A DNA stretch of 64,000 nt from Candidatus Omnitrophota bacterium. GTDB lineage: Bacteria; Omnitrophota; Gorgyraeia; Gygaellales; Profunditerraquicolaceae. The position numbers and the translations under genes were made by a program. A model generated the notes under the pieces. That model had not been told where the DNA came from and searched no databases. It was given only the letters and a program-made list of their open reading frames with translations. Shown here one piece after another: positions 15,001 to 37,135 of this stretch (positions are counted from its first letter, which is position 1; every line of letters begins with the position of its first letter). The stretch spans positions 14,955 through 78,954 of the forward strand of contig JACQXK010000038.1 in the NCBI GenBank assembly GCA_016208765.1, read 5' to 3'.

Positions 15001-18000
15001 CGTATCGTGCTGCACATAATCAATTACACTGTGATGCAACTCATGAGCTCCTCCGCCAACGTTATACTCGCCTACAACATTAGTCGTAACAGAAAGTCTT
15101 CCTCCTGAGGAAACCTTATAATTAAAATTCATTGCAGCATCAAGTCTAAAATCGCCAGTTTCCTTATCCACCTGTGCCGGGGTAACCGCATTAGTTTCTT
15201 CATTTCTGATACTATTTGCCGGCATCAAGTTTACCCTGCCTCTTTTACCCCTCATTGCTGCCTGCCACATTCCAACCCCCCATCTTTCATCAACTGCCGC
15301 CTGACCTCTTGCTATCAGAATCTCTGCTTTTCTCTGAAGAGATGGACGCATTGCCGCTGAAACTTCTTCTGGAGTAGAGGTAAAAAGTGCTAAACCGCGG
15401 ACATTATTTAAAGCTGCTCGATACTGAGTTATCATATCATTTAATGCTGCTTGTCTTGTTTGAACCATTTCTGTAGTTAATGCAATAGGTCTCCCATTTC
15501 GTAACCGATTTTCCGATCCCCTAGCATTAGAACCTTCTGTCAACCTCTTGTTTAGAACATTTTTTGCATTTTCAGCGTTGTATATTTTCTTCTTTAAATA
15601 ATCAATCGCTTGTCCCCTGCTAAACACATTCACCCTGCCTGCCATTCCATTAGGCGAAAGTATTTCCTGCAAAATTTCGCTTAATTGCGATGCTTTAGAT
15701 GGGGATAAAAATGCCCCAAATGGCAAGAAATTTAAAGCCGCCTGAATAAACTGTTCAGTTACTGTCTCTTCAACAGTTCCAGTTACCACCATGCTATAAA
15801 GCCGCTGCCCAATAATCTTTCCTGCTCCCAAAGAGCTTTCTCTTGGAGAAGATTTTAACAACATCCCGGCACCCAAAGTTTCTTCTACTCCTTTACCTAT
15901 TGCCTGAAATTTATATCCGAAGTTGCGCCACTTAATCGCCCCAAAAGCTGATTCTGCAAAAGGCTGTAACCCCGCTAAAGTTGCCGAGAAAATTAAATTA
16001 GTTCTATCTACCTTCTTAAAGAAACCGCTTAGTGTCTTTGGTGCCTGGTCAAATGAATCTACTTTTATATCACCAATCTTCTTCTTATTATCTTGAATAT
16101 TGTCACCCTCTGCGTAAGAACCAAATAACCCGGCAAAATATGCTCTCTCAGCAATCCTACCAGCAACCCTTAGCTTGCTTTCGAAACTCCCTGCTTTATC
16201 AAACGCACCCAACAAAACTGCATATTTATCTCTGCTTGCCGGGCCTTTGCCCTGTTTTGATTCTTCAGGCGTAATCCAGAAAGCTCCGTAAGTAAAATTC
16301 AACAGCGATTTTTCCCAATCTCCATATGCTGCAGGAGAAATGTATGTTTTAGTAAAAGCTGATAAAGACTCCACTACTCCTTGTAACGGAGCAATTACAG
16401 TAAACAAATTAATCATCGTTCCTCTTAAAGCAAAATCCCAAGCTATACCTTTAGTTCCTGCTAAACTAAGTCCGGCCACTTGCCGCGAAGTTTTATCAAG
16501 AAATGAATCCCTTAATCCCGGTATACGGGAAGCTACAGATGCAACCAAATTAACTGTTCCTAGCCATTTCATACCAGTACCAATTCGCCCAACAATTAAT
16601 CCTAAATCCGCTCCATTTTCACCAATTGTTGCACCTTTTAAACCGAATGTACCCTCTACAGCCCCCCAATGCTCTAATCCATAACCTGCGCCAATCATAA
16701 GGGTAGAAGAAATTATCGGATGCTCTACACCAAATAAATGTATATCACTTAATTTAAATTTACCAACCTTAGAAACAAAATAAAGAGCCGGCAAAATCAT
16801 CATTGCCTTGCCAATATTTTCCCCATATTTTGTACCAGAGAAGCCGTATGTCGCTAAACCAGTCAATGCTGTAGCAACAGGAATAACAAATTGCGGGCTA
16901 CTAACAGATTTCCAGAAAGTTGTGGCTCCGGCATTAACTCCTCCTACCGCGCTACTGGCATGTCCTTCTCCCGGAGGAACGCCGCCTTTTCTCCTCGAAC
17001 TAAATACCCAATCCCACATTTTTTCCCCGCCATTAATTACATTTTCTCTAATACCTTTTGCTGCGCCGCGTCCAAAACCTATCTGAGGCTCTAACGGGCC
17101 TTTAATATAAGTTTCGCGCGCAATAAGGCCAATTTTAGTTGCACCCAGCATATTAGCGCCTAAAAATAAAGCGTAGCGCCAATGATTCAACTTACCAGCT
17201 TCTTTATATTTATATGGGTAAACTTCTAATTTCTTACCATCTCTTTCTACCAATACTTTCTCTTTTGTTGTATCTAACTTTTTCTGGCCATATTCATCTT
17301 CCTCAATCATAAAAACTTTCTGCTCTTCAAAAAGATACGGCCGGGTTGCCTCAGCAAAGTCAGGTTTTCTTTTCTGTGGATCAAGCTTCCAAGCCCATTC
17401 CTCAAGCTTGCCATCAACCATTTTCTTTGTTCCATAAAATAGCGCAGCACCAGAAGCTAAATTGCCAGCTAATAATCCTGCTTGGCCAGCTAATCTTAAT
17501 ATTGGGAATACATTGCGCAAACCAACTCCAAATGCTGCACCAGCAATAACATCTGTTTTCCAACCATCGCCAAACAATTCTCCTGTAAGTTTATAATTCG
17601 CATAAATTCCACTTGCTACACCAAGAGATATATAAGGAGCATAATATGCTACACTGTGACCTAAAGCCTTCCATCCTTCTAATCCATTAGCCACAGTACC
17701 AAAATATTTTGCTTCAGTCCTCCCCAACAACGACCTCTCTAAAGCAGATTCAGTGGTACCAGGAAGACGTTCCTTCCTAGCAACAAAAGCTCTTGAGCTC
17801 AACACACCAGACAAACTTTTCATCATTAATAATCCACCGATACCAGCAAGCACTAATCCGGCGTCTGCCACATAATTCCATGACTCTGAGGGCTTATCTT
17901 TAGGACTATTACTCATTCCCCATCTATATAAACCATATCCTCCGACAATCATCCCAACTGAAGTACCAATAGCCCAGCCTCTTCTGCTGTTATATTTCGC

Positions 18001-21000
18001 TTCCTTTTCCCCTAAACTATTCCAGAATTTACCTGCCCTGGTTTTTCCTAATTCCCCGGAAACTAAACCTAAAGAATTAAATACCGCGCTCAACCCAAAA
18101 GCACCTTTAGCTACAGTATCCATACTATAAGCCATAGCAGTTACCTGACGGGAAACATCCTCCAGGCTAAACTGCCCGCCGCTCATAGCATTACCTACAA
18201 AAGTAGAAAATACCGTATTCCAGACTACTAAATTTGCTGCATCACTATGAGTCTTTACAAAAACAGCTCCTAACCGCTGCGTAAACTTATAGTTTGTTAT
18301 TCTTAGGCCGGTATCGGTACCAATAAGTTTATATGTCTGGCCTTTTAATAGTCCCTTTGGAATATTAAAATACTCCGATTCGCTTATTCTAGTAGCCATT
18401 GTTTTATATCCCTTAGTAGCCCCTATTAAACCACCCAAGAACATACCCCACTCTGCACCAGTTGCAGTAGGCACTTCGCCTGTTTGGTCAATCAACATCT
18501 GTTTTGCATGGTCCGCAAAAGAAATTAAACCATGTAAAGTATCCAAAGGATGTGCTGCTGCAGAAATAGAATAACTTCCGCTTGCTGCCTGCGCAAAAGT
18601 ATCTGCAAAAGAATAAAGATAAGCGCCTACAGCCGCGCGCATCCAGCCAAAACTGCTATTCTGCTGCACATCTCTTAAATAATCAGTTACCTGCTTTCTT
18701 TCTTGCATTTTCAATTGGTCAATTACTGCATTAGTTTTGCTGTAACTACGTTGCCCGGAAAATACGCCTATAAAATTTCTACCAGAATTAACTAATACAC
18801 CCCTTAATACTGGTCCCAAGAAATCCAAATTCCCGCCCTTAACAGACTCAGCAACTACCCTGCCGTTTGCATCCAAATCATATTTTACGCCGGCAAGATC
18901 ATATTTTGCAAGAGCAGTAGAAACAGTTAGAGGATGAGTAAGAAGACGCACCGCACCATTGCCAAACAAACGAAGCTTAGAAATCTCATTAGTTTTTTCA
19001 CTTACTTTTAAGAAAATGTTCCCTGTGGCAAAAGATGGCTTAAGCAATGCCACTCCGCCCCAGCGCGCAACTAAACCTAACCCTGCGCCTTTAAGCGCGT
19101 TAGACCAAGTGTGGCCTTCTTTTGTGAAAAACGGGTAAATCCCAGCGCCGGCAGCAGACCAACCAGCACTATAAATTAAATTACCTCTTAGAGGCGTTTT
19201 CCAAATCCATTGGAATGTCGCACTTTTTTCCGCCTCATTCAAACCTAAACCAAAAAGTCTTGCTGAAGACACATAAGATAAATACGCAATATTGCGCGCA
19301 ACGAAGCCAACAGCAGCGCCCTCAAGAAAGTTTCTTCCACTCCAGCCATTAACAGCGCTATTAATCAACCCGCCCGCACCTGCCCAACCTAAAGAATAAC
19401 CAATATGTGCAGCGCGGCTTGCTTTCTGCGCTCCAATAAGATAGCTCATTCCCTTGCCTAAAGCCCCAACTCCTCTTAATTGCCCAACCGCAGACGGAAT
19501 ATATCCCGAAGCTAAAGATACAGCTCCCTCACCAAAAGTCAGCGGTCTACCGGAGCTGGCAATACTTCCGGCATTACCAAGGGCGTATGAAGCATACGCA
19601 AAAGTTGCTCCACTTTCTAGCGTCCTGCCAGATGCAGCAATAATTTGTGTGGCAACTCCTGCCACTCTTGCAAGACGACTTGCCTGAACAACATTTACCG
19701 CTGCCTCAGTAAAATCCATTGCCCCAGCTCCAACACCAGCGCCACTAACAACCGAAGCAGATGCTCTGGCAAATTGAGCTGCTTTTCCTAAAGCAGCCGG
19801 AGCAGCACCCAAAACACCAGCAGTAACTCTTTCAGACCAAGTTAACGTTTCACCAGTAAGCCCGTATTTTAATATTTCCGCTCCGGCAATAGAATATGCT
19901 GCGGCTCCGGCAATCATAATTAAAGATACACCTGTAGGAGCGCCTACGCCAGTTGCAGACAAAACTGTCCCAGCGACATAAGCTGCTGCTGCTCCACCGT
20001 ATATTGCCGCAGATCTTGTTGTTACCGCATCATCCACTACCGCGATCGGTATATAACCGTGTTTTAATGCCCTTTCAGCAAATGCTCCCATAAATACCCG
20101 CTGCGCCTGCGCATAGGATGTCCTTAAAGCATAATTATTGAATACCCTAACTTCACCTGAGCTTACATCAATATCACTAAAACTTATATATTCCATTATC
20201 CCGGTTTGTGGGTTTATCACCAATAACTTGCGGCTTCTCTCAGAATCACTCCTCCAAAAAGCCATTTGGCCACGCCAGGAATCAGTAGTATTAAACAAAG
20301 CTACCATATTCTCTGCTGCCCTTGGATTATTAGATAACATTTCACGCAGAACTTTTCCCCGCGTCTGTACACTTAATGCCTCAGTAGACGCCAAAAGCGT
20401 GCCGCTATTAGCTTCTTTTCTTGTCTTTCTTTCAAGCCATTTCATTTTTCCGTCGGCAGAACGATAACAATCATAGGCAAAACCAAGCTGCTGAAGCCAC
20501 GGCTGCAGAGTATAACGAGTATCGCCTATCTGAATATACTGCTCAAATACACCTCTATTAAGACTACGAACCCATCGCCCTTTTTCTCCGGAAGCAAAAG
20601 CAACATCTTCTGACAACTGAGTGCCACTCGCATTTGCCAGGCTAACATAAAACAACTTATTTGAATATTGCGCGCCAGATAAACAAAGATACCTAACGCC
20701 GTCAATTTCTGTCTCTCCTTTTACATATACCCGCGCGCCATTAAACATATAAGCCATTTCGCCTTGCGGAGTTTTTACCTGCCTTAAACCAGTGCCCGGA
20801 AGCACTTCCAAGCCGTAAGGCATATAATCGGTCAAAAGCGGAGCGCCAACCTCTGTTTTCTTTCTTGTCTTGCCCTCTTGATAAGAAATGCTTAATTGAT
20901 TACCATCCTGAGTTACGATCACCTTATCTAAATCTCCAGCAGCTTGGGCTTTAACTACAATATTCATTATGCTGGTTAACCCTGCGCCTAATTGAATATT

Positions 21001-24000
21001 AAATTTATTTGCTATATTGGCATACTGTATTGCCCTAGCTTTGTTATCCACTCCGCCGGCAGCAAGATAACGCGAGACTAACATACAGGCAAGATCTGGG
21101 AATATATTGGTTGGGCCAAATTGCTCTGCTTTAGCAAGGTAAGCACTTCTTGTAACCGGATCAACTGTGCGTTTTGCCATTTCTGTGTAATACATCTGCA
21201 TTACATGAAATCCAGATAAGCTTTTTCCATTAGCCGCGTTAAACTCAGAGGTAGTCAAATGCAATAATTTTCCATCTTTATATACCACAATTCTCACAGT
21301 ACCCTTGTTACCCGGAAGCCCGTCGTACGCTTCAGGCCTCGTGATTAATTCTCGCACATCAACAATTCTACCCTTACTATCTACTGTAGTTTCTCTATGA
21401 GTTAAATCCACTGGTATCAATTTACCGTCTTTATTTCTAAACAATCCCGCCACATGCGGCTCTTCCAGGCCATCTATAATCCCCGAGGTAACCCTGCCTT
21501 TAAGCCCGGTTAACTCAGCCAATTGATAAAAAAGAGTAGTTGCAGCAACACAATTGACTTTTCCAGTACTTGGATCTTTGAGCTCTTTTGTTAAAGCAGT
21601 GTTAAGCAAAATAAATGCTTTTATAAAAGCGACCTTGTCTTCTTCTGTTTTCTTTAAACCTCTTAGAACACCATCAAGATCTTGCCAGCTTGCTTTAGCG
21701 CCATTCGTATCCAACCATTTCAACGTCAACATAACTAATCTATCAGCGCCTTCTTCTTTAGGGATCGGCCTCCCTCTATTTGCCTTTATAAAATTCCTTA
21801 GCCACTGATCAAGATTCTGTTCCTTTCCTAAAGCACCTAAAGCAGCTAACGGATCAAAAGCCCCCTGCTCAAATTCAGGCATGACTAATTGGCCGTCTCT
21901 AACTTTAAAAACTGCTCCACCTTGGCTAATCGCTCCACTTGATATTTGACCATTGGAATCAAAGGAAACTTTACTAGAACCATCAAAAACTAAATCATTA
22001 CTTCCAACTACCTTGCCATCTTTATCAAGAATTGCCTGATATTTCAAATTACCCTTAAAGCCATTACTAACAATTTCATAATTTCTTAAGTCTTGAGATA
22101 TTGATCCGCTAAAATTATAATTAAGACGAGTTAAGAAATTAGAGGAGGCTCCAGAGACCTTGCCATCAACACCTAAACTTAAAGTATTCAACCCCCTGTT
22201 TGCTGCAACAGGCTTTTCTACTTTGTCTTCACCCACACCAGTTTCCTGCTGACCACCAGTTGTTTGAGCATAAAGAGCCTGTTTTCCATTAGCTAAGGTC
22301 ACGCTTACCTGCTTAGTGCCATCTCCTTCAACTCCAGTAACCGCTCTCCATTTACCAGGTTCAGTCATGAATCTGGCTGATGTATCTATTCCTTTAATAT
22401 TACCTGCTGCATCCCAACTTACTCTCTTGGCAAATTCACCTAAAGCTCTTTTCTCATAAACATCAGTAAATAATGCTGTGTATTTCTTACCATCTAATGG
22501 CTGCCAGTAACCTGCATGTCCGCCTTTTATCTGCCCCTTTGCATCAAAAGATACTTGTTCTCCTTTTGTTCCAGTAAAGGTTAGACCGCCGTCGGCAGCA
22601 GCATAAGAAACAGCATCTTTATCTCTAAATTGTCTAACAAGATTTTTATCTCCTTTATACCCTTGATTAACTACTGTATAATTCCTTAAATCTTGGCTGA
22701 TAGAACCACCAAAGTTATAGCTTAATCCTGCGATATAGTTTGAAGATACACCGGATAGATTACCATCAACACCTAAATGCATTGTCTGCGCATGGCGGGC
22801 TGTAGCAGTAGCAGAACTCTCTTTATCTTGAGGAGAAGCGTTGGTTTCCTGGCCCTGAGATCTTTCGCCAAACCAGGCCTGTTTTCCATTAGCTAAGGTC
22901 ACGCTTACCTGCTTAGTGCCATCTCCTTCAACTCCAGTAACCGCTCTCCATTTACCAGGTTCAGTCATGAATCTGGCTGATGTATCTATTCCTTTAATCT
23001 TACCATCTAATGGCTGCCAGTAACCGCCAAGCTTGGTTTCAAGGGTACCATCTGCATTAAAAACAGCTTTATCTCCTGCCCTCACAAAAGCTAAGCCACC
23101 TTTTGCCAAAGAATCATTATTTCTGCTCAGCTGAACTGTCAAAGATGCATCCCCAGAAAAAGTTGAATGCAAAGTTGAATTTCTGAAATCTCCAGACAAA
23201 TTCATAGAGGCAGAATTAAGCTGAGACACAGAAATGTCTGCTATCTGCACACCAGAAGATCGAAGAACGCCAGAACGTTTGGATAATGTTAGCTCCCTAT
23301 GGCTATAACTTACCTTATTATTATCATTACCTGATTCGTCTTTCCTGAGTTCCGGCTGAGGTGTCTGTGCCAAAACCAATTCATTATCTCCGCCAAATTG
23401 CAAATATGGTTTCCCTGCGGCATTAACTCCAGCCACCAAATCCTGCACCGAACCACCAGGCATAGTTAAACTTCTTACTTTAAAATCAAGCCATTTCTTA
23501 CCACCATCCTCTACCCAGAAACTTACACCTTTAAGTGTTACATGCCTTAATGCCACATTATTTCTATCAGTCAAATCCACATAATAATTTCCCGACGCAT
23601 TAATTCCTCTCCACCCTGACTGGAATCCTCTATCTTTAACAAATCCATTTTCATTTAACGTAAATGTCTGCCCCTTTAAAGAACCGCCGTCTTTACGCGC
23701 GGCGGCAATAATTGTTCCTGTCCTACCTTGTTCTCCGGAAACAAACTCTCTAATATCACTTCCAATTGCATGCCTCGTATTCTCAAACATCGGCGAGAAG
23801 TTGATGTTGGTGCCGAGGTTAGCAGAATTAACTTCAAAGATTGCTGCACGCTGCAAGCCGCCAGAAGCGCCCTTTGAATGATATCTTTCTGTATCGCTCT
23901 TTGGATTAATTTCTTTGGTGGACCAAGATGTAATAGGTAAAGTTTTAATGTCGGCTTGCTTATTCTGCGCGCTGTCTTTTTCATCAAATTTAATTTCTTC

Positions 24001-26769
24001 AGGAATAACCATAGCTCCATAGCGCACTTCTTTAAAACGAAGATAATCTTTGCCCTGCTCGGTAACTAAATCTCCGACTTCAACTTCTTTCTTAACACCT
24101 GTCTGCCCATATTTATAAAAAGTAACGGTAGCCTTCTGGTTCTGCTTGGCAACACCGTTTCTTTTCCACTCACTACCTTGATAAGAATACGGAGTTCCAA
24201 CAGCAAGCTCGGTTAACCTCTGAGTACCGTCATTTGCCGAGACCAAATCCGCAAATACCATTGCACTTGCAGAACAACCGGCAGCAGGAGTTACTTTATC
24301 TTTACCAACGATAACTGCAGGATTCGCGCCTTTAACTGTATACTCAGCGCCATTCCAATTAAATTTTTCTCCTAAAATACGCGAATTAGAAAAATACGGA
24401 TTTAAATTTGCACCTTGGCCGGTAAGGCCCAAAATAATATTCCCAGTTGCCCGCATAGTGTAGCGGTCAAGAGTATGATTATTAAAAACAGACTGCACGC
24501 CATAAGCCGTGCTTGATTCGCTTCCTGTAGCAGGCTTAGGAGTTATCGTCGGCAGTGTTCCGGCGTTAATTCCCACTGCATCCACATAGCCATTTTTATC
24601 AGCGTAATAACCAATAACTCTTCCAACAGTATCCCAATCTTTTTTGTCGGCGACTCCGGAATAAGCAACTCCAGCGCCGCTTAGCGCTTTATCTAAAGCT
24701 ACCTTATTCGGCAAGCCAAACTCATTATGTCCAATATCCCATTTTGCACCAGATAACGGCGAATAAAAAGACTGCCAATAAGTTCTGTCGGCAATAGTCT
24801 GCGCGCCTTGGCCATTAAAACGCAAATCCGTCCGGCCCCCGCTATTTTCCATATTTAAACCCATCACCTGCCATGGCAAAGTGCCTCCGTCCCTAATCGG
24901 CTCAGGAAGAAAGTTTACCACCCTTTTATATTCCGGCACGGAATTTCCTTCGGGCGAATAAAATATAATCTCAGGTAAAATTTCTACTCTTTGTCCTGGC
25001 TTAAAACCAATTTGATTGAATCCCGGATTCCAACCAGCACGATTACAATAAAGAGTAAAGCCCGTGTCTCTACCATATTCATCAAGTACTCCCGAAACTT
25101 TAACCAACCCACTCTCCACAGAAAATCCATCATATTCTGAAAGCCTTACACGCGTCGGCGCAGTTACAGGCACATCACGCGGAGCGCTATCTCTATCTAA
25201 CGCATTTACTCCAGACGGATTCATTACCGCATTAGCCATAGTCCACAATGGAACAATTACCGACATCTTCCCATCTCTACCCTTATCAAAAGACTGCTCA
25301 TTTAAACTCACCCTAAAATCCAGTTCACTTCTCTGCTTGCTGATCCATACGTAACCAGTATCCTTGGCAGACCTGCTGCGGAAAGCGCTCTCAGCATGCG
25401 CCACTTGCCCATTAGCCTTTGTTTCAAAACCTTCAAATTTACCTTCCATAGGAGTGGCAAAAAACTGTCCAGTCTGCCCTTTTGCCGCCGGAACAATAGT
25501 CTTATTATTAAAACGCGCTTCCACTAATCTACTGTTGCTGTCAAAACGCTCCTGAATAGCCACAGGCTTTGCAGCAGCGGTGGTATCGCTAATAAATCCG
25601 TAAGTCGCCCTCCACTCAGCGGTCTTTGCCGGATTTGTAGAAGCCTGCGCAAAACCATAGGTGCTGCGCACGGTGTTTGCCGGCCTCTGATTAGGATCAT
25701 AAAAAGTAACGCTCATAGACATTGGCGAGCTGACTTGGCGGGTAATATTGACATTTGCATTGTTAGACCTGGCATCGTAGGCAACAAAACCTGAATTATA
25801 ATTATTTGTCGCCGGACTGCTATAACCTTGATAAGAATTGCTGAATATCTCATCTCTCTCACGCAGCCAATCTCCGGCCCCTCTTATTTCCTTAGCCTCT
25901 TTTTCAGATAAAATTATATCCGTGCCTTGCGGCTGGGCAATTAAAGCATAGCCGCTAAATTTTTCTGCGAATTTTTCGGTCGGCAGAAATTCTTCTTTAT
26001 GCTCGTCACTATAATAGATCTTATCCGGGGTAATCCGGGTTACTAAAACGAAATGGTCTTTTTTAAAATGCGCAATGAATGGCGCTGCATTTGCTGCATT
26101 AGCCGAATTGGTTGAACTAAAATCTAACTTAACCGGATAAAGCTTGTCCCCAAAAAATTCTGCTGATTTTGAAAGGGCAAATAAAGAATTCTTAATTTCA
26201 GTTGGATTTCCTTCAGGCTTAACAATGTCATTTAAAATATCAAAGGTTAAAGCCATAACCGCCACATCCTGCTCCTGAGCGCTTATTCCTTTGTAAACTA
26301 AATAATCAAATAATGCCTTTGCGCCGCAAGGCTTGCCAATTAACCAATTGTAAATTTCTTCAATGCGGCCCTTAGATAATTTTAATGGCTTGGCTAATTC
26401 AATACTCTGTGTGGGAGAAATCTTAATGCTTGTAACCGGCTTACCTGAAAGGTCAATAAGGACATTTTTAACTGCTGTGGGGACATTCAAATCTTGAGGA
26501 TTCCTGACAATTGAGGCAGGGCCCATATTAACTGAAGGAGCATAAGGTTTGTTCCAGAGTACACGCCAATCATATTCAATGGCGTGGGCAACCTGCTCCG
26601 GTAGAAAAACCGCTACCAGGATAAAAGCAACAACTCTGATCCAGCCTTTGAAATTTGAATGAAATGGTGTTTGTTCGGTTTGGATTGTAGGATTTGTAGA
26701 TTGTTCAGATGAGATTACAGTTTGTGGGACAGGCCTGCGCAATACTATATAAAAAATAATTGAGAGCAT
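1..26769 (-). CDS. Giant multidomain membrane-anchored/secreted protein A, partial (>8,900 codons in window; 3' end beyond window position 1)
   Basis: I translated minus frame 0 by hand at 1-60, 3900-3960, 6361-6480, 9400-9780, 12750-12780, 15018-15060, 17281-17340, 25920-26400 and 26581-26769. All are open and in the same frame. The ORF track shows no stop-delimited minus-strand ORF in this frame, consistent with an ORF running off the window edge. ATG at 26769 is preceded by AAGGGGAGG (SD) 4 nt upstream. N-terminus MLSIIFYIVLRRP...GWIRVVAFILVAVFLPEQVAHA is a signal anchor. Plus-strand ORFs here are antisense shadows. Confidence 0.8.
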   Translation of the reverse strand, partial: MLSIIFYIVLRRPVPQTVISSEQSTNPTIQTEQTPFHSNFKGWIRVVAFILVAVFLPEQVAHAIEYDWRVLWNKPYAPSVNMGPASIVRNPQDLNVPTAVKNVLIDLSGKPVTSIKISPTQSIELAKPLKLSKGRIEEIYNWLIGKPCGAKALFDYLVYKGISAQEQDVAVMALTFDILNDIVKPEGNPTEIKNSLFALSKSAEFFGDKLYPVKLDFSSTNSANAANAAPFIAHFKKDHFVLVTRITPDKIYYSDEHKEEFLPTEKFAEKFSGYALIAQPQGTDIILSEKEAKEIRGAGDWLRERDEIFSNSYQGYSSPATNNYNSGFVAYDARSNNANVNITRQVSSPMSMSVTFYDPNQRPANTVRSTYGFAQASTNPAKTAEWRATYGFISDTTAAAKPVAIQERFDSNSRLVEARFNNKTIVPAAKGQTGQFFATPMEGKFEGFETKANGQVAHAESAFRSRSAKDTGYVWISKQRSELDFRVSLNEQSFDKGRDGKMSVIVPLWTMANAVMNPSGVNALDRDSAPRDVPVTAPTRVRLSEYDGFSVESGLVKVSGVLDEYGRDTGFTLYCNRAGWNPGFNQIGFKPGQRVEILPEIIFYSPEGNSVPEYKRVVNFLPEPIRDGGTLPWQVMGLNMENSGGRTDLRFNGQGAQTIADRTYWQSFYSPLSGAKWDIGHNEFGLPNKVALDKALSGAGVAYSGVADKKDWDTVGRVIGYYADKNGYVDAVGINAGTLPTITPKPATGSESSTAYGVQSVFNNHTLDRYTMRATGNIILGLTGQGANLNPYFSNSRILGEKFNWNGAEYTVKGANPAVIVGKDKVTPAAGCSASAMVFADLVSANDGTQRLTELAVGTPYSYQGSEWKRNGVAKQNQKATVTFYKYGQTGVKKEVEVGDLVTEQGKDYLRFKEVRYGAMVIPEEIKFDEKDSAQNKQADIKTLPITSWSTKEINPKSDTERYHSKGASGGLQRAAIFEVNSANLGTNINFSPMFENTRHAIGSDIREFVSGEQGRTGTIIAAARKDGGSLKGQTFTLNENGFVKDRGFQSGWRGINASGNYYVDLTDRNNVALRHVTLKGVSFWVEDGGKKWLDFKVRSLTMPGGSVQDLVAGVNAAGKPYLQFGGDNELVLAQTPQPELRKDESGNDNNKVSYSHRELTLSKRSGVLRSSGVQIADISVSQLNSASMNLSGDFRNSTLHSTFSGDASLTVQLSRNNDSLAKGGLAFVRAGDKAVFNADGTLETKLGGYWQPLDGKIKGIDTSARFMTEPGKWRAVTGVEGDGTKQVSVTLANGKQAWFGERSQGQETNASPQDKESSATATARHAQTMHLGVDGNLSGVSSNYIAGLSYNFGGSISQDLRNYTVVNQGYKGDKNLVRQFRDKDAVSYAAADGGLTFTGTKGEQVSFDAKGQIKGGHAGYWQPLDGKKYTALFTDVYEKRALGEFAKRVSWDAAGNIKGIDTSARFMTEPGKWRAVTGVEGDGTKQVSVTLANGKQALYAQTTGGQQETGVGEDKVEKPVAANRGLNTLSLGVDGKVSGASSNFLTRLNYNFSGSISQDLRNYEIVSNGFKGNLKYQAILDKDGKVVGSNDLVFDGSSKVSFDSNGQISSGAISQGGAVFKVRDGQLVMPEFEQGAFDPLAALGALGKEQNLDQWLRNFIKANRGRPIPKEEGADRLVMLTLKWLDTNGAKASWQDLDGVLRGLKKTEEDKVAFIKAFILLNTALTKELKDPSTGKVNCVAATTLFYQLAELTGLKGRVTSGIIDGLEEPHVAGLFRNKDGKLIPVDLTHRETTVDSKGRIVDVRELITRPEAYDGLPGNKGTVRIVVYKDGKLLHLTTSEFNAANGKSLSGFHVMQMYYTEMAKRTVDPVTRSAYLAKAEQFGPTNIFPDLACMLVSRYLAAGGVDNKARAIQYANIANKFNIQLGAGLTSIMNIVVKAQAAGDLDKVIVTQDGNQLSISYQEGKTRKKTEVGAPLLTDYMPYGLEVLPGTGLRQVKTPQGEMAYMFNGARVYVKGETEIDGVRYLCLSGAQYSNKLFYVSLANASGTQLSEDVAFASGEKGRWVRSLNRGVFEQYIQIGDTRYTLQPWLQQLGFAYDCYRSADGKMKWLERKTRKEANSGTLLASTEALSVQTRGKVLREMLSNNPRAAENMVALFNTTDSWRGQMAFWRSDSERSRKLLVINPQTGIMEYISFSDIDVSSGEVRVFNNYALRTSYAQAQRVFMGAFAERALKHGYIPIAVVDDAVTTRSAAIYGGAAAAYVAGTVLSATGVGAPTGVSLIMIAGAAAYSIAGAEILKYGLTGETLTWSERVTAGVLGAAPAALGKAAQFARASASVVSGAGVGAGAMDFTEAAVNVVQASRLARVAGVATQIIAASGRTLESGATFAYASYALGNAGSIASSGRPLTFGEGAVSLASGYIPSAVGQLRGVGALGKGMSYLIGAQKASRAAHIGYSLGWAGAGGLINSAVNGWSGRNFLEGAAVGFVARNIAYLSYVSSARLFGLGLNEAEKSATFQWIWKTPLRGNLIYSAGWSAAGAGIYPFFTKEGHTWSNALKGAGLGLVARWGGVALLKPSFATGNIFLKVSEKTNEISKLRLFGNGAVRLLTHPLTVSTALAKYDLAGVKYDLDANGRVVAESVKGGNLDFLGPVLRGVLVNSGRNFIGVFSGQRSYSKTNAVIDQLKMQERKQVTDYLRDVQQNSSFGWMRAAVGAYLYSFADTFAQAASGSYSISAAAHPLDTLHGLISFADHAKQMLIDQTGEVPTATGAEWGMFLGGLIGATKGYKTMATRISESEYFNIPKGLLKGQTYKLIGTDTGLRITNYKFTQRLGAVFVKTHSDAANLVVWNTVFSTFVGNAMSGGQFSLEDVSRQVTAMAYSMDTVAKGAFGLSAVFNSLGLVSGELGKTRAGKFWNSLGEKEAKYNSRRGWAIGTSVGMIVGGYGLYRWGMSNSPKDKPSESWNYVADAGLVLAGIGGLLMMKSLSGVLSSRAFVARKERLPGTTESALERSLLGRTEAKYFGTVANGLEGWKALGHSVAYYAPYISLGVASGIYANYKLTGELFGDGWKTDVIAGAAFGVGLRNVFPILRLAGQAGLLAGNLASGAALFYGTKKMVDGKLEEWAWKLDPQKRKPDFAEATRPYLFEEQKVFMIEEDEYGQKKLDTTKEKVLVERDGKKLEVYPYKYKEAGKLNHWRYALFLGANMLGATKIGLIARETYIKGPLEPQIGFGRGAAKGIRENVINGGEKMWDWVFSSRRKGGVPPGEGHASSAVGGVNAGATTFWKSVSSPQFVIPVATALTGLATYGFSGTKYGENIGKAMMILPALYFVSKVGKFKLSDIHLFGVEHPIISSTLMIGAGYGLEHWGAVEGTFGLKGATIGENGADLGLIVGRIGTGMKWLGTVNLVASVASRIPGLRDSFLDKTSRQVAGLSLAGTKGIAWDFALRGTMINLFTVIAPLQGVVESLSAFTKTYISPAAYGDWEKSLLNFTYGAFWITPEESKQGKGPASRDKYAVLLGAFDKAGSFESKLRVAGRIAERAYFAGLFGSYAEGDNIQDNKKKIGDIKVDSFDQAPKTLSGFFKKVDRTNLIFSATLAGLQPFAESAFGAIKWRNFGYKFQAIGKGVEETLGAGMLLKSSPRESSLGAGKIIGQRLYSMVVTGTVEETVTEQFIQAALNFLPFGAFLSPSKASQLSEILQEILSPNGMAGRVNVFSRGQAIDYLKKKIYNAENAKNVLNKRLTEGSNARGSENRLRNGRPIALTTEMVQTRQAALNDMITQYRAALNNVRGLALFTSTPEEVSAAMRPSLQRKAEILIARGQAAVDERWGVGMWQAAMRGKRGRVNLMPANSIRNEETNAVTPAQVDKETGDFRLDAAMNFNYKVSSGGRLSVTTNVVGEYNVGGGAHELHHSVIDYVQHDTRRIIDNNTRLQYEGFLNQFQNRLGLDNEEFQRVDLGITEWGLNEALVQYYSMVDLLHFLDQDKNLHLAKFCPGSYNIQDLIQRTINQGGNSLLSLSERMLEMENTGEAMDYIIDFVQCTNGNKIKFVTPTAQTNGQQPEEDDDTSSPIIMNLKRKPVYGLPPEVESAKDKKIIASSSVLAALSDSKENASSDVPLSATDKVGIPEAQKVVSAAIEASRGRSPPEQAITVPVVTPVVIPSVTPASAQRATFSSVGRMKSYLAKLFIPLALAVIIFGGVKLSPVTGTLANNVSGATPKAVSRVVQVSRPSNFILNDENQQIERVVKASPAVVKATQFTKQKDNAPLVPLIRSLQEVKDSSLINLLKRAAFFVQPPENNQAVDKKIIVSSAVLTALTGKKEVVLSAPIATPVVTSIVAAYVSPRNIINQSSSAINSNDLRKGLRWTAAGLSLTSVGVLGSMFAIDHAPSIEILSYVQGGLLTTVAGLGTAVRTIDLVSGNNSSKGAWLSQLAITLGTPLDVFFGGAVSQVGNAMQIAGASYSVVKEKGLARWANVIGIGFDAFDIVQGHTLERPAKSGIDSGGVISETVDEMISRDAVGKIKFNPVKFLIPVVVAALISGGVKFGLVTGALADNVKSASPKAVSEVVKVGNPSNLVVRGENNHIVRTIKVDHAVVKAVPVAVDIQKKASASSAIVSSPTAQATRFTLNKRTQSVTYPGRLGLVHQDVVGYLQSAGKAPEQHLTIVDLGIGHSGAPTVFEFARVLSDAGYRNVDLIGVDNTVKHLVSARDRLEREEVPVGIRMDFGINDNFLLFPDVRSFAGRGIRALRDGVDLILTANVLGHYWEPEQQKTAIWAMTQALKPEGALVVAGGNKFEVKLINKFLYSYGIDYYSKAGELLSARRFEKINPLYSSRASELEYKQHFSFRDPAVRRTYFAGEFSSKPVASLAWQTLAQQSRQPVVVDVSASSVLVENEEVKAIASLAQAMVAAKRQGNAAASPVVVENGQRFIELAPEHRTEIAKFAAIKEQLVEARANIGKAMAEGASVDKIRELAGVLDSVSNEVMKWINEAIAKKDADPVLAIIGLSFKTSGDNYGREGGRQFSAFDSYSAAFGLQSYVELFNGSSENEKKEVLEMIFESASDLEGRMSLDLSLFNNNNPKLPLRIVAFTDGYLAREVIDVDAVLDQASSPVQSPAENQLPANLPVAPARVPVPTSIGAVVGGLGTFAEMLGSSPALPLVIKPATEGLVVSSSAIMSTVAGTQLFGQAGGVNVATGISPMSGRGNRQAGRKLGALVGSSAVGAIVGARGAAESRSNETGLPVAANVGAVARTVGKSRGSSSAIIGLRREDDKLPLIGESASSSIHTRNQILVEKYGARGPPADYPLNQTVSSAIPVNYGAVVRIGSSSVSLSSIYQLLKYYLKEIISAFISNEPHFTPSVAGMVDEAIVVYAGRQKASLQGLTSFGACVTTKTTASSGLSSIFVADFSLSGILWTLTCVSFSAAAFYGFIRKNMRFAALSSSIVIFNFAFNFANLNWFFHNWFYNFLDVSVYMGFALGLVELSRYIKENNSELENGLAAKPITQISVIGANIAAAVFFSLLSAQEILTKYESTRNFIHAFYWKNLTYDPYDILAYAAGTLLLVLYNRWTAEPKESMGKRDVGLQGLLRNQKPVRRNRSRSTSSPITNLTKPYSIPSVAGTIVKAIVVYAGRQKASLQGLTSFGACVTTKSASNAVTKILNYSVAVEPQSNLTTYFKLTGGAKCVDLTIQKLILTTWWNSLKTQLSLPRVETTVICGFSLLTTARVMSIAVMAGQIPGKYSQIMTVIWSLNDSSLPAAARSRSTRSTQKGRSNRVAGHVSPVTSHLSPVSGKAASSALNNDLGAVARTEGSSSAVIDLSDTLFKESDGVVELFNVFVDEFEEVVKLARETGAKITKKFLNELFERMFDARFINATKKQRNNLRNQAIEAVTAGHASSALTNNVGAVVVASSSVDEVTRELPVSEESKEMIKVFLSEFTVTLDKFKDALSKYKKNNKKGLTALEQLIIGFSKSIEGGRKRTKTDAQDIFGMLCQTITKISEYDLNAAMFVINGALYRLKKVSEPEKRKEAFAWIESEIGKMEFVLASINAGANFVKAHRDNNELLIDIKGTFLLNLETLRGRNLRKAEEVVREFMKDYIMVITRDQNVDPEQTTFRERGILFIEMFTKRFADNEAFIIDLMKKAVTASSAVGAVVAINTTQASSAVVEMGWSELFRAFFKTLNHFMGNSIGPIVGNIKLMQDPAYASYLASPDVIKSEIIDGCQSMLKFIEEVLSMEQPSVAEIASNLDPDPVLFVESIKNITGAPASVKLTDNTWDEIKKEILLPRLNFLKNQVKYILNFVDTIDGDNEARNTVGTAGETMRYAVAEFENKYRDMVEIPGLVLTSIFSAHMLLKEYSGSYGISGERDIKIVEDSVLFKILLDIGYERSYIHAVLAKRGLKVFFAHERDFGKKESNGDHPIGAVVYRYDENNNNIVVFCFGVINSRRNEYLSPILLLKFLSLILVDWKQEKEIAKYHGTDFNPTVSIVVDPRIGDGAFFKAFNFSKNGNVFSKPFDAIVKSSSPVGALMVTKTGTSSPVGAVVGAIASQEAAKSSSALFNNFGAGKYLSDVANKGLIRAGPVGSLVTICSSSSVRNLVVKTVKIASVATIIILFGLLVNIKGFLPLLPVVLSAASFGLLYASFTARKNIRLNPQTQITPAAALKKAMPAALYVAAGTLLIIGGLKITPLIISAGLLAKLLPSVVIMLGISMLLTASFLTKHGVEYSGVKFLKLAFGMLLTRLIALRLAHQAVHTQKTLGERHSFRDLFSIRHFTLKTRAAYIGLSLAVVLTSGIASVKLIIIAAVLGYTMPYLWNVLRNFFFDRALYNAERTGLIFKHHDNQLEAAQTEFINNLEKKLAAEYANLSWPAKAVLHIAFFFVRLNVAFPVLSATTMFFFGRLQLILLSSLLGHIFAPVILGDAVINSLPAVYGIKFLEPYLSALHLSYHTGDIFGTLAIVFGLKVINLGHIRNRIIEFWLGRSINVMSYYQALNSDKEQVREKAKADLEYIISRGAMGNSLFEKVVMNGLGKKVARISSRQWLYLKADIVALAVILAVVTPIVLMLKFPVLLPLGLLGLGLYVAQSIRKKAFFADPYKNLWVSLSGEFFSSMLYMWTIGAEINAVIASGGFLAEHPVLKHFGGTELDIIGRSLEGENGAISWGSHALNSVNQFVGADLTEFAYSLVSGNKEPGIFATAYNFYPLYQNGQILKNKDGHILPGGLNLDDFHALYVGRKPLSKELDRNETAKLLESFKGRFNFDRIFSHSRRANIIRVIDRVYRVRINSADDLRRLLRSANLDEIISGFGMVGKDSKNLLNIRHAFSVRAVKAQEGISERARRLMLMSVEYKFKALAQADDVQKERFMILARIVDLDLQDEVLRENNSAKEKSEDNQLSRRIALLELEINNEKGAVKLEGLRKQKHALELFLAQRKVYRLERATTEEFMAELSAQGFGGVSGQEAEMFRETALQQAYDELAELKDKKPAVPVTEPANSIDIRDQIRQQEEQGTKAQDRQIVAAPKAPAQVVINKGVKVPGQVPVETTMSRAPPAKQANNTFGQKAKAVVLASALFLNSLGATEAFAAAVPAAVPAPAPVARRPDPVAVPRQAPAAPADIIYTIKSGDTVSKIAIRYGIKWQDLYDYNKGVIGANPNRIFPERQIKIPVSARTAAPAQTAQPQPADQAVKSGPTTGAKASPEPAVTPKPKPAPYKPLDYSGIRDLGSVPQALAALGRRIPRELDLTKKADDLLIPLQTISTDLEALKARVHLLKSPKSWDKKYNGFWDYIKAFRAFEAAKEQVLEQIRGLETTIARKASYIRVEKGEFELKKKTAKYEKYLKISRYDAQRKAFLELMPVSFADDPAEFGKTYLYDFAVLIDALTFAGENKKAAELLRLFTRFFGDGKNGFYNAYILSDLRHIENKSAGPLAHMIIALCNYERTSGDGTYRHVAENIARFMQKNLLTSANGMTMFRFTNNKEDYLDLYNVVSTEHQISSYAAFNQLYALTGDVDYKLVRNSLQDYLTAAYITQEGYFKVGYRIDTNTWDTDYANDLNSWAILAGIAGPAQEQMLDFVEGQVIKVDYRKQGEKIKVEGLPFGRARLDQKQVVTFEWTSFAALAAAKTGRVKLSRRLLDSQNRAAVNGMLEYATEPDVSTYFGWSTSRGRALVSSLWNLLAQSGANIFDPHCSGAKINAGNLDSMLKNFSFSEETYRLKQAEYAVFDMVRSLYGAQSWVKEIQERLAMTEKEREDLINLAPIIKIGPGGLFNSLFSFNFGSFPLFGDDCNLGIGLQLGGKYGAIPSLLNNVYGLSKNGISIIGTLAAADAIIDLYSAPKMEKLEERGGIMYLDGREFNAGILSAAWPKALLNMRYDPKTGRVIKGSEEETVTPVKVDFPWEKVTNVISRLLHLKSPFERKDYKAIVFLGTQQLLAYRQAFFNKNADDVYFAIRQGKYQYIVKHNLSSREYEIISETLMFEEETRKFLQDVGWYMHDGEAIVLPSILRLNYARNYVNSIQEGKFGAEVNPVTGEVYEVRREQDIPPVVYDAKGLPLDPYAGNVKMPSLNLALIRWAMEMGETGKQKFAVLFDGDNVDIRTGDQGLQVKVAGKEFKFKSGRREIVFSAGTRYVEIDGEKVLVIAEKEINVPIAIVYSTSPRIPTQFIYDKKELVNIEIVGEPEEIRFDNGLKIELTTGTALRWYYDEKASPLGAGIIEFAKDQDYLSNEAVVENDFSRLATQPFGVKEGEMLPVLEGDKPFEDAARRDPNAKADHLTRLTNMYWDEVFKLMQMRRELRGFSDIYQAIAADAVTEDRLRFYSDLVDGLEFWRRQIEIEMGGKRTVSLADLDQNLDKTMVDLQKEIDDRNSWRPALLAQIATYQSEVNQYKALRTQAEQAHNQFLVNYYTGIIDQYETILIPDVYKQLSQLEVENNVKM
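3820..3960 (-). other. LysM domain in giant protein A, flanked by Pro/Ala-rich linkers
   Basis: Verified translation APAAPADIIYTIKSGDTVSKIAIRYGIKWQDLYDYNKGVIGANPNRIFPERQIKIP. Canonical LysM pattern YxVkxGDTlxxIAxxYgv...L...N.l....i.pGq.l.iP. Confidence 0.75.
5400..6480 (-). other. Polytopic membrane segment (8 or more predicted hydrophobic helices) embedded in giant protein A
   Basis: Translation of 6361-6480 verified (AAYIGLSLAVVLTSGIASVKLIIIAAVL). The adjacent stretch continues with several about 20-aa hydrophobic runs (approximate read). Confidence 0.4.
9403..9451. repeat. Heptanucleotide array (GGAGACA GGAGACA GGTGACT GGTGACT GGTGACA CGTGACC GGCGACA) inside gene A
   Basis: Seven imperfect 7-nt units. 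Verified to encode ...VAGHVSPVTSHLSPVSGK in frame. Confidence 0.85.
9826..9930. repeat. Internal direct repeat copy 1 in gene A (80-nt perfect identity with 10596-10675)
   Basis: ttagttgtcacgcaggcgccgaaggaggtcagtccttggagggaggccttctggcggcctgcgtaaacaacaatagcct is identical at both sites. It contains an imperfect internal palindrome (gcaggcgccgaagg...ccttctggcggcctgc). In frame; encodes VVYAGRQKASLQGLTSFGACVTTK. Confidence 0.9.
10596..10700. repeat. Internal direct repeat copy 2 in gene A
   Basis: See copy 1 at 9826-9930; 770 nt apart. Confidence 0.9.
12400..12900 (-). other. Class I SAM-dependent methyltransferase-like motif set within giant protein A
   Basis: Verified translation PEQHLTIVDLGIGHSGAPT (motif I hh(D/E)hGxGxG), followed by DLIGVD (post-I acidic), VDLILTANVLGHY (motif II) and KPEGALVVAG (motif III). 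Confidence 0.45.
15031..15045 (-). other. HExxH zinc-metallopeptidase-type motif (GGGAHELHHSVIDY) in giant protein A
   Basis: Verified codon by codon. The motif alone is not proof of a peptidase. Confidence 0.35.
22277..22398. repeat. 122-nt perfect direct repeat copy 1 in gene A (tandem ~200-aa domain repeats)
   Basis: gcctgttttccattagctaaggtcacgcttacctgcttagtgccatctcc...cctttaat is identical at 22877-22998. The surrounding about 600-nt units (21900-23100) are diverged copies of the same unit; copy 2 lacks an about 85-nt segment. Confidence 0.9.
22877..22998. repeat. 122-nt perfect direct repeat copy 2 in gene A
   Basis: See 22277-22398. Confidence 0.9.
25920..26340 (-). other. Peptidase C39-like (papain-fold Cys/His) domain within giant protein A
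   Basis: Hand-translated: IGKPCGAKALFDYLVYKGISAQEQDVAVMALTFDIL...NAAPFIAHFKKDHFVLVTRITPDKIYYSDEHKEEFLPTEKFAEKFSGYALIA. The Cys, His and Asp/Glu spacing and the HFVL...D..E..F..W/F.G motif match the C39 bacteriocin-processing peptidase pattern. Confidence 0.5.
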
Positions 26770-27076: not shown

Positions 27077-27105
27077 AGTATATATGATGCTTACAAGTGT
27101 GTCAA
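27077..27105 (-). promoter_or_regulatory. Sigma70-like promoter of giant gene A (TTGACA, 17 nt spacer, TATACT)
   Basis: Sense strand reads TTGACAcacttgtaagcatcataTATACT. An AT-rich UP-like region lies upstream. Confidence 0.5.
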
Positions 27106-27212
27106 GTATATTTTTAGTACTTTTTGAAAGTGTTTTCTTTCTACTCTTTTCTGCGGTTACCGCCCTATTTGCAAAGGGTTTAGTTGCTGATTAATTTTTG
27201 TTTCCTCTTTGT

Positions 27213-27279
27213 TGTCATTCCCGCGGACACGGGCATCCAGGCATTTAAACGGTTGGATTCCCGCTTTCGCGGGAATGAC
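27213..27279. repeat. Palindromic intergenic repeat, GTCATTCCCGCG...CGCGGGAATGAC family, copy A
   Basis: gtcattcccgcggacacgggcatccaggcatttaaacggttggattcccgctttcgcgggaatgac. The outer 12-nt arms are inverted repeats, and the inner gggcatccagg/ctggattccc arms are also inverted. ORF-track ORFs here (WIPAFAGMT / VIPAKAGIQ) are translation artefacts of the repeat. Confidence 0.85.
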
Positions 27280-27327
27280 AAACCTCCCCTACGATTTTCG
27301 TAGAGAGGTGTCCAATACTTCTCTATT

Positions 27328-27417
27328 GTCATGCCCGCGGACTCCAGCGGCCTTGCCGCTAGGCAGGCGGGCATCCAGGCGTTCCAATAGCTGGATTCCC
27401 GCTTTCGCGGGAATGAC
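27328..27417. repeat. Palindromic intergenic repeat copy B (with extra inner hairpin insertion)
   Basis: gtcatgcccgcggactccagcggccttgccgctaggcaggcgggcatccaggcgttccaatagctggattcccgctttcgcgggaatgac. Confidence 0.85.
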
Positions 27418-27469: not shown

Positions 27470-27536
27470 AGATTGGACAATTATATTGGACTTTATTTCA
27501 CTTTGGACATTTTACAGGCATTTAATAATGTCCAAA
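27470..27536. promoter_or_regulatory. Cluster of TTGGACA(T) motif sites just downstream of the gene B stop, including the inverted pair TTTGGACAT(17 nt)ATGTCCAAA
   Basis: cagattggacaa (27470-27480), attggac (27485-27491), tttggacattt (27503-27513), aatgtccaaa (27527-27536). Confidence 0.6.
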
Positions 27537-27545
27537 CTGAAACCT

Positions 27546-35045: not shown

Positions 35046-35087
35046 ATTTTTAAGTGGCAAATACTTTTTGAAACTGTTTAGGATTTA

Positions 35088-35628: not shown

Positions 35629-36135
35629 TTATTTAGCTCTAAAACTGGTGATTATTTTATTAAAGATAGGCTCATATTTCTTATCCTTACCTACCTCATA
35701 AGCATAGGTTAAGACATAAAAATACTTTCCCTTGCGGAAAACAACGCTGGTCATTCTTAAAGTAAATTCTTTTATCTTGGTGACAAATGAAAATTTCTTA
35801 CCTGGCAAAAAACCTGCGAATGCGCTTCCTTCCTGTTGATCATACGCTCCCGGCAAATTGCGTAAAAGTTCTTCACGATTTAACTCGTAAAATGTCCCCA
35901 AAGAAACCTGTTCCGGCAATTCTGTTACTACCACGTTAATATTTTCCGGATACACATCCCCTTTACCTTCAAGCGGCGCCTTGGCAATCAAAGCCACCTT
36001 ATCCATTCCTTCTTTACTCCAGGAATTTGGCAGTAGTAAAGAAAATTTATATTCTTCATTACTATATTTCTGCCAGAATAAATTACACCCTGCCAGAAAA
36101 AATGTGATCAAAAATATAATAAATAACTTACGCAT
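35629..36135 (-). CDS. Lipoprotein, unknown function (about 168 aa; lipobox FFLAGC)
   Basis: Track ORF 35629..36174. The internal ATG at 36135 gives MRKLFIIFLITFFLAGC. The N-terminal extension in the track overlaps a degenerate repeat copy. Confidence 0.7.
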   Translation of the reverse strand: MRKLFIIFLITFFLAGCNLFWQKYSNEEYKFSLLLPNSWSKEGMDKVALIAKAPLEGKGDVYPENINVVVTELPEQVSLGTFYELNREELLRNLPGAYDQQEGSAFAGFLPGKKFSFVTKIKEFTLRMTSVVFRKGKYFYVLTYAYEVGKDKKYEPIFNKIITSFRAK

Positions 36136-36143
36136 AGTATTGC

Positions 36144-36180: not shown

Positions 36181-36186
36181 ATTTGT

Positions 36187-37074: not shown

Positions 37075-37135
37075 ATCCTTCTTTCTATTGATCCTTAAGT
37101 CGGCCGAAGGCCTCCTTCAGATGACGGTAGCGCAA

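Follow-up and report, generated by a model that had tools for sequence, protein, structure and literature searches.

The giant proteins of the Omnitrophota, which reach tens of thousands of residues, pose an open puzzle, namely whether each persists as one chain or is cut up. The question is raised by a 64,000 nucleotide stretch of contig JACQXK010000038.1 (positions 14,955 to 78,954, assembly GCA_016208765.1) from a Candidatus Omnitrophota bacterium, referred to here as the window, which carries a giant gene whose product begins with an export signal and a papain-like domain of the C39 cysteine peptidase family. Passages of West-Roberts et al. 2023 (bioRxiv 10.1101/2023.11.21.568195) describe Omnitrophota giants that bear an N-terminal C39 domain near signal peptides and propose that it may cleave the giants or other substrates; they also speculate on cleavage into many pieces and state that information on the cleavage points is lacking. 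In the window protein the domain is followed by a motif that resembles the leader of double-glycine peptidase substrates, and we narrowly favour the view that signal, C39 domain and this cis leader-like motif would together bring about one cut after Ala298, in cis or between copies, which would free the giant cargo.

The giant gene occupies the minus strand as a single uninterrupted frame. A stop at ~26830 bounds this frame on one side; on the other it is still open at window position 1, where the window edge truncates the gene. The stop-free run comprises 8,943 codons, or 8,923 codons as a minimum when counted from the ATG at 26769, and the term mega-protein, used in an earlier note drawn from the letters of the window, is therefore apt, since at least 8,923 codons lie in one frame. 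All scans of the giant protein cover these visible residues, the portion of the gene past window position 1 lying outside them. Residue numbering starts at the following codon:

26767..26769, minus strand: ATG start codon used for numbering, preceded by AAGGGGAGG (ribosome-binding-like)

This ATG is preferred over the alternative starts ATG 26826, ATG 26802 and TTG 26742 because of the ribosome-binding-like sequence and the start points of the homologues, and is adopted as a tentative choice for the start of the protein.

The N-terminal domain of the giant protein is a genuine C39-type cysteine peptidase domain, which is preceded by a short extension:

25927..26502, minus strand: N-terminal extension (residues 90-145; helix, hairpin, helix) and C39 papain-like core (residues ~146-281), delimited by Pfam, AlphaFold and Foldseek

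The earlier note had proposed a C39 identity from three peptides, KPCGAKALFDYL (26334..26299), FKKDHFVLV (26067..26041) and GYALIA (25953..25936), all of which are indeed encoded on the minus strand, and the profile search that it suggested upholds the proposal. Pfam Peptidase_C39 (PF03412) matches residues 195-281 with 37.7 bits (E = 2.2e-9) against a gathering cut-off of 22, the alignment spanning profile positions 46-131 of 133. A precomputed PF03412 match is present on 36/48 close homologues, and relatives are named 'cysteine peptidase family C39 domain-containing protein' by NCBI PGAP. The NCBIfam PCAT model gives a weak match (21.7 bits versus a cut-off of 500), and a direct sequence search of the PDB likewise yields weak matches (6mpz at E = 0.31 with the single sequence and 0.009 with a profile), which made a fold search necessary. 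An AlphaFold model of the module, built on 30 homologues, has per-residue confidence (pLDDT) values of 72-96 across residues 90-300, and its top Foldseek match in the PDB is the double-glycine peptidase LahT150 (6mpz; E = 7e-6, TM score ~0.7 over the whole 140-residue target). Further matches are 3b79, the PCAT1 peptidase domain (7n87, 4ry2, 6v9z) and ComA (5xe8/9), and the list also holds the papain-like toxin 9l5u, CtaG and structures of C39-like domains (CLDs) including that of HlyB (3b79, 3zua). A second AlphaFold model, made for a subfamily that is 31% identical, retrieves the same best matches LahT150, PCAT1 and ComA. The fold prediction that had also been suggested thus leads to solved C39 double-glycine peptidases and not to an unrelated fold.

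Three residues make up the predicted catalytic triad:

26326..26328, minus strand: Cys148, predicted nucleophile (KPCG, start of helix 150-159), C in 180/180
26053..26055, minus strand: His239, predicted general base (DHFVLV), H in 171/171
26005..26007, minus strand: Asp255, predicted third triad residue, aligned with the Asp-Pro of LahT150

The counts come from a family alignment of 185 sequences, made up of 48 close homologues, 136 cluster representatives and the window protein, in which the Cys and the His that had been picked from the letters alone prove to be the invariant ones. Cys148 is the only Cys in residues 1-310, and it is equated with the C39 nucleophile through the C-G motif and the fold alignment over the whole target. 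His239 aligns with the histidine of the NHFVVL segment of LahT150. The Asp255 position is less strict (D 120, E 24, other ~24, of ~170 sequences), and its spacing of 16 residues from His239 equals that of the pair numbered His101/Asp117 in LahT150 (PMC6363468). Judged by Cys148, His239 and Asp255, the C39 module is probably catalytically intact.

The evidence for where such a peptidase might act lies directly behind the domain:

25912..25926, minus strand: variable tether, residues 282-286, between the last domain strand and the motif
25876..25911, minus strand: double-glycine-leader-like motif L287-S-E-K-E-A-K-E-I-R-G297-A298 (P12-P1), defined by the family profile

The motif of the window protein is written LSEKEAKEIRGA followed by G, with the predicted scissile bond joining A298 to G299, between bases 25876 and 25875. 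Across the family the pattern is L-S-x-x-E-A-K-x-[IV]-x-G-[A/S/G], and the motif is kept in every relative that carries the post-domain region. P12 is L/I/V in 147/148 relatives, P11 is commonly S/T, P8 is E/Q in 120/142, P7 is A/S in 127/141, P4 is I/V in 140/140 and P2 is G in 139/139; A (104), S (13) and G (12) together account for P1 in 129/134, and P1' is variable. In the published consensus of double-glycine leaders (PMC6363468), Leu(-12)-x3-Glu(-8)-Leu(-7) precedes a hydrophobic position -4, and positions -2/-1 are taken by Gly-Gly, Gly-Ala or Gly-Ser; the family motif fits this consensus in register at all positions but -7. The stretch that separates GYAL from P12 is unconserved and 8-24 residues long (median 10; n=134 relatives).

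The motif also marks the end of homology. Mean pairwise identity amounts to 0.64 over the last 45 domain residues and 0.53 over the motif, and drops to 0.19 over the 45 residues after P1; a tblastn comparison of the window protein with three homologous contigs detects no similarity past residue 299. When scored with a motif matrix derived from 133 relatives, the window sequence being excluded, the motif reaches 28.3 bits, whereas the highest score among 200 shuffled copies of the entire giant protein is 16.3. The second-best site in the 8,923 residues scores 12.8 bits (ITPEESKQGKGP), lacks the P4 hydrophobic residue and has Pro at P1. The strict pattern occurs a single time across the six frames of the window, and the leader-like motif was not found in the neighbouring giant open reading frames (ORFs; 27546-35060 and 54216-63905), in the pilin-like ORFs or in any other frame of the window. 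A single self-cleavage after Gly297-Ala298 is proposed.

The predicted structures are consistent with a leader role. In the model of the window module the motif is helical at P10-P5, forms a beta-bridge at P3 and has a pLDDT of 84-92, and taking both AlphaFold models together it has a pLDDT of 84-94, a short helix at ~P10-P5 and an extended or bridged P3-P2, after which confidence collapses immediately behind P1. The leader bound to LahT150 is linear at P1-P3 and forms a two-turn helix at P4-P11 that lies in a hydrophobic groove (PMC6363468), and the modelled shape of the motif matches that of this bound leader.

Upstream of the C39 domain the protein carries a candidate export signal:

26581..26664, minus strand: export signal, residues 36-63, with basic n-region, hydrophobic core and AXA site

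The signal of the window protein consists of the n-region FHSNFKGWIR, the 11-residue core VVAFILVAVFL and A61-H62-A63, followed by I64-E-Y-D-W; its hydrophobic segment covers residues 43-57, with the Kyte-Doolittle peak at residue 43. The family shares this arrangement, in which PEQVA-x-A sits after the hydrophobic core and a conserved V/I-E-Y-D-W comes next. Among 176 sequences the -3 position of the AXA site is A/S in 168, the -1 position is A in 172 and the +3 position is Y in 155. The charge distribution points to an N-in/C-out orientation under the positive-inside rule, and cleavage by signal peptidase I would be expected from the von Heijne -3/-1 rule. The C39 domain behind this Sec-type signal is thus probably exported, which would place it outside the cytoplasm. 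It had been said to follow right after the signal anchor, which holds roughly, as Cys148 lies ~90 residues beyond the hydrophobic segment, but a variable spacer and the conserved helix/hairpin extension come in between. The F-K-S-S-F-K-x-W-I-R n-region and the V-E-Y-D-W-R-V-L-W that follows the AXA site (26578-26664, minus strand) are far more conserved than ordinary signals require, a hint that there may be a dedicated recognition step.

In the proposed mechanism the first ~300 residues would form a self-contained maturation module, which is found at the N-terminus of many Omnitrophota proteins. The signal would carry the N-terminus across the inner membrane, where the C39 domain would fold and take up its own leader-like helix (P12-P4) in the hydrophobic groove, with Gly297-Ala298 coming to lie across the active site. 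Cys148 would then make one cut behind Ala298, either in cis or from one neighbouring copy to another, and the giant cargo from residue 299 onward would become detached from a signal/peptidase pro-module of ~235-300 residues. This would amount to the leader and peptidase pair of PCAT fused into one exported chain, in the order peptidase, leader, cargo, and operating with no ATP-binding cassette (ABC) transporter. Whether such a module, consisting of Sec signal, C39 domain and cis double-glycine leader, is an as yet unrecognised self-excising export pro-domain that departs from hundreds of Omnitrophota proteins, including the largest known, we consider a matter of even chances. The autoprocessing guessed at in the earlier note is accordingly a plausible one, but the site differs, being the conserved leader-like motif after the domain and not the ASSAVGG repeats to which that note had drawn attention.

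The motif makes the vague idea of a C39 function specific, in that one cut after Gly-Ala at 298 by Cys148 would remove the signal/peptidase module. Were this true, these giants would have a concrete cleavage point for the first time, a PCAT-like leader system would be operating beyond the cytoplasm with no ABC transporter involved, and C39/double-glycine processing would extend past the small peptides that ABC transporters export. Were it false, the ordinary annotation of a known domain is what would be left.

The cargo that would be released is largely devoid of recognisable domains:

1..25875, minus strand: giant cargo, residues 299 to at least 8,923, in open frame; the gene extends off the window
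3793-3933, minus strand: LysM domain of the giant protein, residues 7613-7659, from Pfam

C39 and LysM are the only Pfam families across the 8,923 visible residues, and Peptidase_C39 is the sole one within the first 6,000. Neither ABC_membrane nor ABC_tran domains were found by Pfam in the visible residues. Hydrophobic segments cluster at about residues 4179-7043, one such group lying at residues 6599-7043.

Several observations weigh against a single self-cleavage. The Cys-bearing third of the PF03412 profile is left unaligned in the window protein; the family has ~10 extra residues in the Cys region and a conserved 55-residue N-terminal extension. The oxyanion Gln expected at Cys -6 is not present, a near-invariant Trp142 being found there, and position -7 is variable across the family (N/A/S/Q/E/H); the role of this Gln is doubted even in LahT150, in which 4.3 A separate it from the oxyanion (PMC6363468). 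At P7 the family has Ala/Ser and the leader consensus Leu, and a few relatives, three in number, carry Lys at P1 (LSDQEALQISGK). Contact of the motif with Cys148 is suggested solely by the pLDDT and secondary structure of the models, and with so short a tether (median 10 residues) the cut might be made in trans. Finally, a distant subfamily (P0130-P0182, 31% identical) has the motif variant V-[PS]-D-x-x-x-A-F-[VI]-W-G-[S/N/D] and a conserved x-W-x-D-x-S-x-x-L-P-G-L that continues past the glycine. An hhalign comparison of the two subfamilies gives a homology probability of 100% and does not place their motif variants in register, which is why the AFVWG-S/N/D variant is described separately here. 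Cleavage rules may differ between the subfamilies.

The invariant catalytic residues, the confident packing of the motif in both models and the distant subfamily, where conservation runs past the glycine and P1 can be Asn/Asp, would also suit an exported protease that acts in trans on other proteins, of the cell's own envelope or pilus or of prey, with the motif serving as an uncut pseudo-substrate latch, an auto-inhibitor or a structural element. An action on prey surfaces is suggested for Omnitrophota giants in passages of West-Roberts et al. 2023, and the C39 domain of StbD takes both self and foreign substrates (bioRxiv 10.64898/2026.05.07.723447). However, the two neighbouring giant ORFs, the five pilin-like ORFs and the other frames of the window offer no leader-like motif, an uncut latch needs neither Gly at P2 in 139/139 relatives nor the Ala/Ser/Gly spectrum of a cleaved leader at P1, and it would be left unexplained why homology stops exactly at P1; on balance we regard a trans-acting protease of this kind as unlikely. 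The chance is slimmer still that the C39 domain chops the giant precursor at Gly-Gly sites along the chain, as raised in passages of West-Roberts et al. 2023. Motifs of the form SS[AP]VG[AG] do exist, at residues 3272, 5217, 6145, 6519 and 6533, which gives the remark in the earlier note on ASSAVGG-type copies with Gly-Gly a slight basis, but SS[AP]VG occurs five times in 8,923 residues, only one copy contains Gly-Gly, and Gly-Gly dipeptides are not enriched (49 seen versus 67 expected in the giant protein). As cut sites these repeats fail with the family matrix, the SSAVG sites scoring at most 6 bits, which is background, and the next best matrix site (12.8 bits) falls inside the shuffled range. 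Moreover, the strict pattern is met with only once in the window, and C39 peptidases require a helical leader besides Gly-Gly (PMC6363468). ASSAVGG motifs and repeated Gly-Gly were rejected as substrates, with counts at or below expectation and matrix scores at background.

Very little probability attaches to a non-catalytic C39-like domain that, like the CLD of HlyB-type ABC transporters, would bind or chaperone the unfolded giant during secretion. The fold matches CLDs too (3b79, 3zua, HlyB) and the option is mentioned in passages of West-Roberts et al. 2023, but CLDs are defined by the loss of the catalytic Cys (PMC6363468), and a CLD is contradicted here by a Cys and a His that are invariant in more than 170 relatives; in addition, Cys148 is the only Cys of the module and the visible chain has no ABC transporter. 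Equally remote is another chemistry on the papain fold (transglutaminase, amidase or cell-wall hydrolase, acyltransferase, glycosidase) or a delivered C39-type toxin. Papain-like folds do host such activities, Foldseek lists the papain-like toxin 9l5u and CtaG, Tox-PL-C39 toxins are known, a passage of PMC13642728 reports glycosidase activity for a C39-like archaeal protein, and the LysM domain in the cargo points to a peptidoglycan context. Nevertheless the domain is matched best, in sequence as in fold, by true double-glycine peptidases and not by NlpC/P60 proteins or transglutaminases, and the adjoining leader-like motif suits a peptidase specificity. Polymorphic toxin domains are C-terminal and accompanied by an immunity gene, whereas this domain is N-terminal and directly behind the signal, at residues 90-281, with a 2,504-residue secreted protein as its upstream neighbour and the same ORF continuing downstream.

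The module that is proposed to excise itself belongs to a large family, for which a cut-off of E <= 1e-3 yields 624 cluster representatives and one of E <= 1e-30 yields 175. In this family it is always N-terminal, and the relatives have lengths of up to 7,821 residues. Of the 134 sequences that contain the complete motif, 48 continue for 1,000 residues or more beyond P1 and 20 for 3,000 or more. Homologues are 50-60% identical, and nearly all of the named ones belong to Candidatus Omnitrophota, including Gygaella and Gorgyraea; two close matches are labelled as metagenome-assembled genomes of Ignavibacteriae and Portnoybacteria. In the homologous contig L001 a 480-residue C39 gene and the next gene, of 14,858 residues, share the same frame with one stop between them (11441-11570), and the C39 gene of L003 ends in a stretch that is duplicated and frame-shifted (10990-11530). 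Since many fused giants also occur among the representatives, the stand-alone gene calls look like split giants, and many stand-alone homologues are probably giant genes divided through assembly error, pseudogene formation or read-through. On the same grounds we rejected the view, prompted by these gene calls, that a separate protein of 400-480 residues is the normal form of the module. An IS200-type Y1_Tnp gene lies just upstream of the module in L001 and L003.

An exception is the contig L002, in which two paralogous modules (2601-3497 and 10001-11449) with short Gly-rich tails look genuinely short. They are 29% identical to the window module and keep the Cys, the His and the motif (ISDAESKTILGA followed by G and VPEEEAKSILGA followed by G), and they share a short Gly-rich hydrophobic tail behind the motif (RSYSGRSVNISGLFKKPST..VIGIG.AIGGAF). 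In several other homologues the cargo begins in a glycine-zipper-like manner that is reminiscent of double-glycine bacteriocin cargo.

Upstream of the giant gene lie genes for a pilus and for further large proteins. A candidate promoter is located in the region in front of it:

27077..27105, minus strand: near-consensus sigma-70-type promoter TTGACA-17-TATACT, 11/12 matches, ~300 nt upstream of the giant gene, recognised by consensus match only

A 16-bp hairpin directly follows the stop of the upstream 2,504-residue ORF (27496-27542, minus strand), and hairpin and sigma-70-like promoter together suggest that the giant gene is transcribed on its own. Two copies of a ~70-nt palindromic repeat lie upstream of the giant gene at 27206-27417; they are 88% identical direct copies, each of them an inverted repeat, whose translation gives peptides of the 'VIPAKAGIQ...' type, and they look similar to a small interspersed repeat or a miniature inverted-repeat transposable element. 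The upstream ORF itself (27546-35060, minus strand) is Ala/Gly-rich and has a classical signal peptide (...SLSPAWA / REG), and no Pfam match, C39 module or leader-like motif was found in it.

Further upstream, at 35629-53509, lies a Tad/Flp pilus cluster that encodes a SurA-like peptidyl-prolyl isomerase, RcpC/CpaB, a secretin with a C-terminal TonB fusion, a fusion of a TadZ-like ParA with a TadA ATPase, DUF192, five Flp/TadE-type pilin-like ORFs, a TadE/G-like protein, two T2SS-F proteins and a PsbP-like lipoprotein. Two of these fusions are unusual, namely the secretin (T2SS-T3SS_pil_N and Secretin) with its C-terminal TonB_C (49971-51647, minus strand) and the ParA/TadZ-like ATPase joined to a TadA-type T2SSE ATPase (47811-49967, minus strand). 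The five consecutive small ORFs (149, 125, 76, 47 and 110 residues; 43861-45444, minus strand) each have a Flp/TadE-type class III signal, [KR]-[GA]-Q-S-x-x-E-[YF], and a hydrophobic stretch, and are probably pilins or pseudopilins of the Tad cluster. An A24 prepilin peptidase (TadV/CpaA) was not found by Pfam in the window. Beyond the cluster, a 3,229-residue ORF (54216-63905, minus strand) contains HEAT repeats at ~493-567 and a LysM domain at ~996-1027. The order of Tad genes, C39 module and giant gene recurs in L001 and L003. As the giant gene and its relatives adjoin a Tad/Flp pilus-secretin cluster, it may be speculated that the release step could pass the cargo to the envelope or the surface.

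The presence of the domain is already known, and the window supplies a further member of a class that has been described: the giants in the passages of West-Roberts et al. 2023 show the same feature, an N-terminal C39 domain near a signal peptide and beside type II secretion system (T2SS)- or Tad-like genes, and a portion of a second preprint lists a 24-protein PF03412 architecture cluster (bioRxiv 10.64898/2026.06.07.730766). Glycine or leader motifs are not mentioned in the searched passages of either source, and the additions made here are the census of catalytic residues, the AXA site and the cis leader-like motif.

For StbD-CT, a CdiA-like C39 toxin, experiments demonstrate self-cleavage in cis, the site being a di-glycine within the flexible linker that borders the domain (bioRxiv 10.64898/2026.05.07.723447). 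As in the window protein, the C39 domain is part of a very large secreted protein, and in StbD the cut frees it from the membrane-tethered part. The StbD site is N-terminal to the peptidase, whereas the putative site in the window protein is C-terminal to an N-terminal peptidase, and the part released would be the giant cargo. StbD-CT is furthermore a C-terminal toxin with an immunity protein that cleaves GyrB and ParE in target cells, while no immunity gene is evident in the window. The HlyB-type CLD (3zua, 3b79) has the same fold and is likewise tied to the secretion of very large proteins, but it has no catalytic Cys and performs no cleavage, in contrast to the window family with its invariant Cys and His and no ABC transporter.

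The closest relatives by fold are the C39 domains of the PCAT/AMS proteins (LahT150 6mpz, PCAT1 4ry2/6v9z, ComA 5xe8; PF03412, MEROPS C39), with a TM score of ~0.7. Both have the Cys at the N-terminus of a helix in a C-G motif, the His in a HF-V-L strand and the acid 16 residues further on, and the adjoining motif shares with PCAT leaders L at -12, S at -11, E at -8, a hydrophobic residue at -4, G at -2 and G/A/S at -1, together with a predicted helix-plus-extended conformation. Unlike these proteins, the visible chain of the window protein contains C39 and LysM by Pfam and no ABC transporter, and its C39 domain has ~55 extra N-terminal residues, an extra helix before the Cys, no Gln at Cys -6 and a P7 of Ala/Ser in place of Leu. 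The peptidase domain of PCAT is cytoplasmic, whereas that of the window protein, because it sits behind a Sec-type signal, is probably extracytoplasmic. PCAT acts on a small peptide, whereas here the presumed leader is part of the same polypeptide, C-terminal to the protease and in front of a cargo of thousands of residues. The architecture would therefore represent a variant of the C39/double-glycine system that is exported, dispenses with the ABC transporter and unites peptidase and leader in one chain with a giant cargo.

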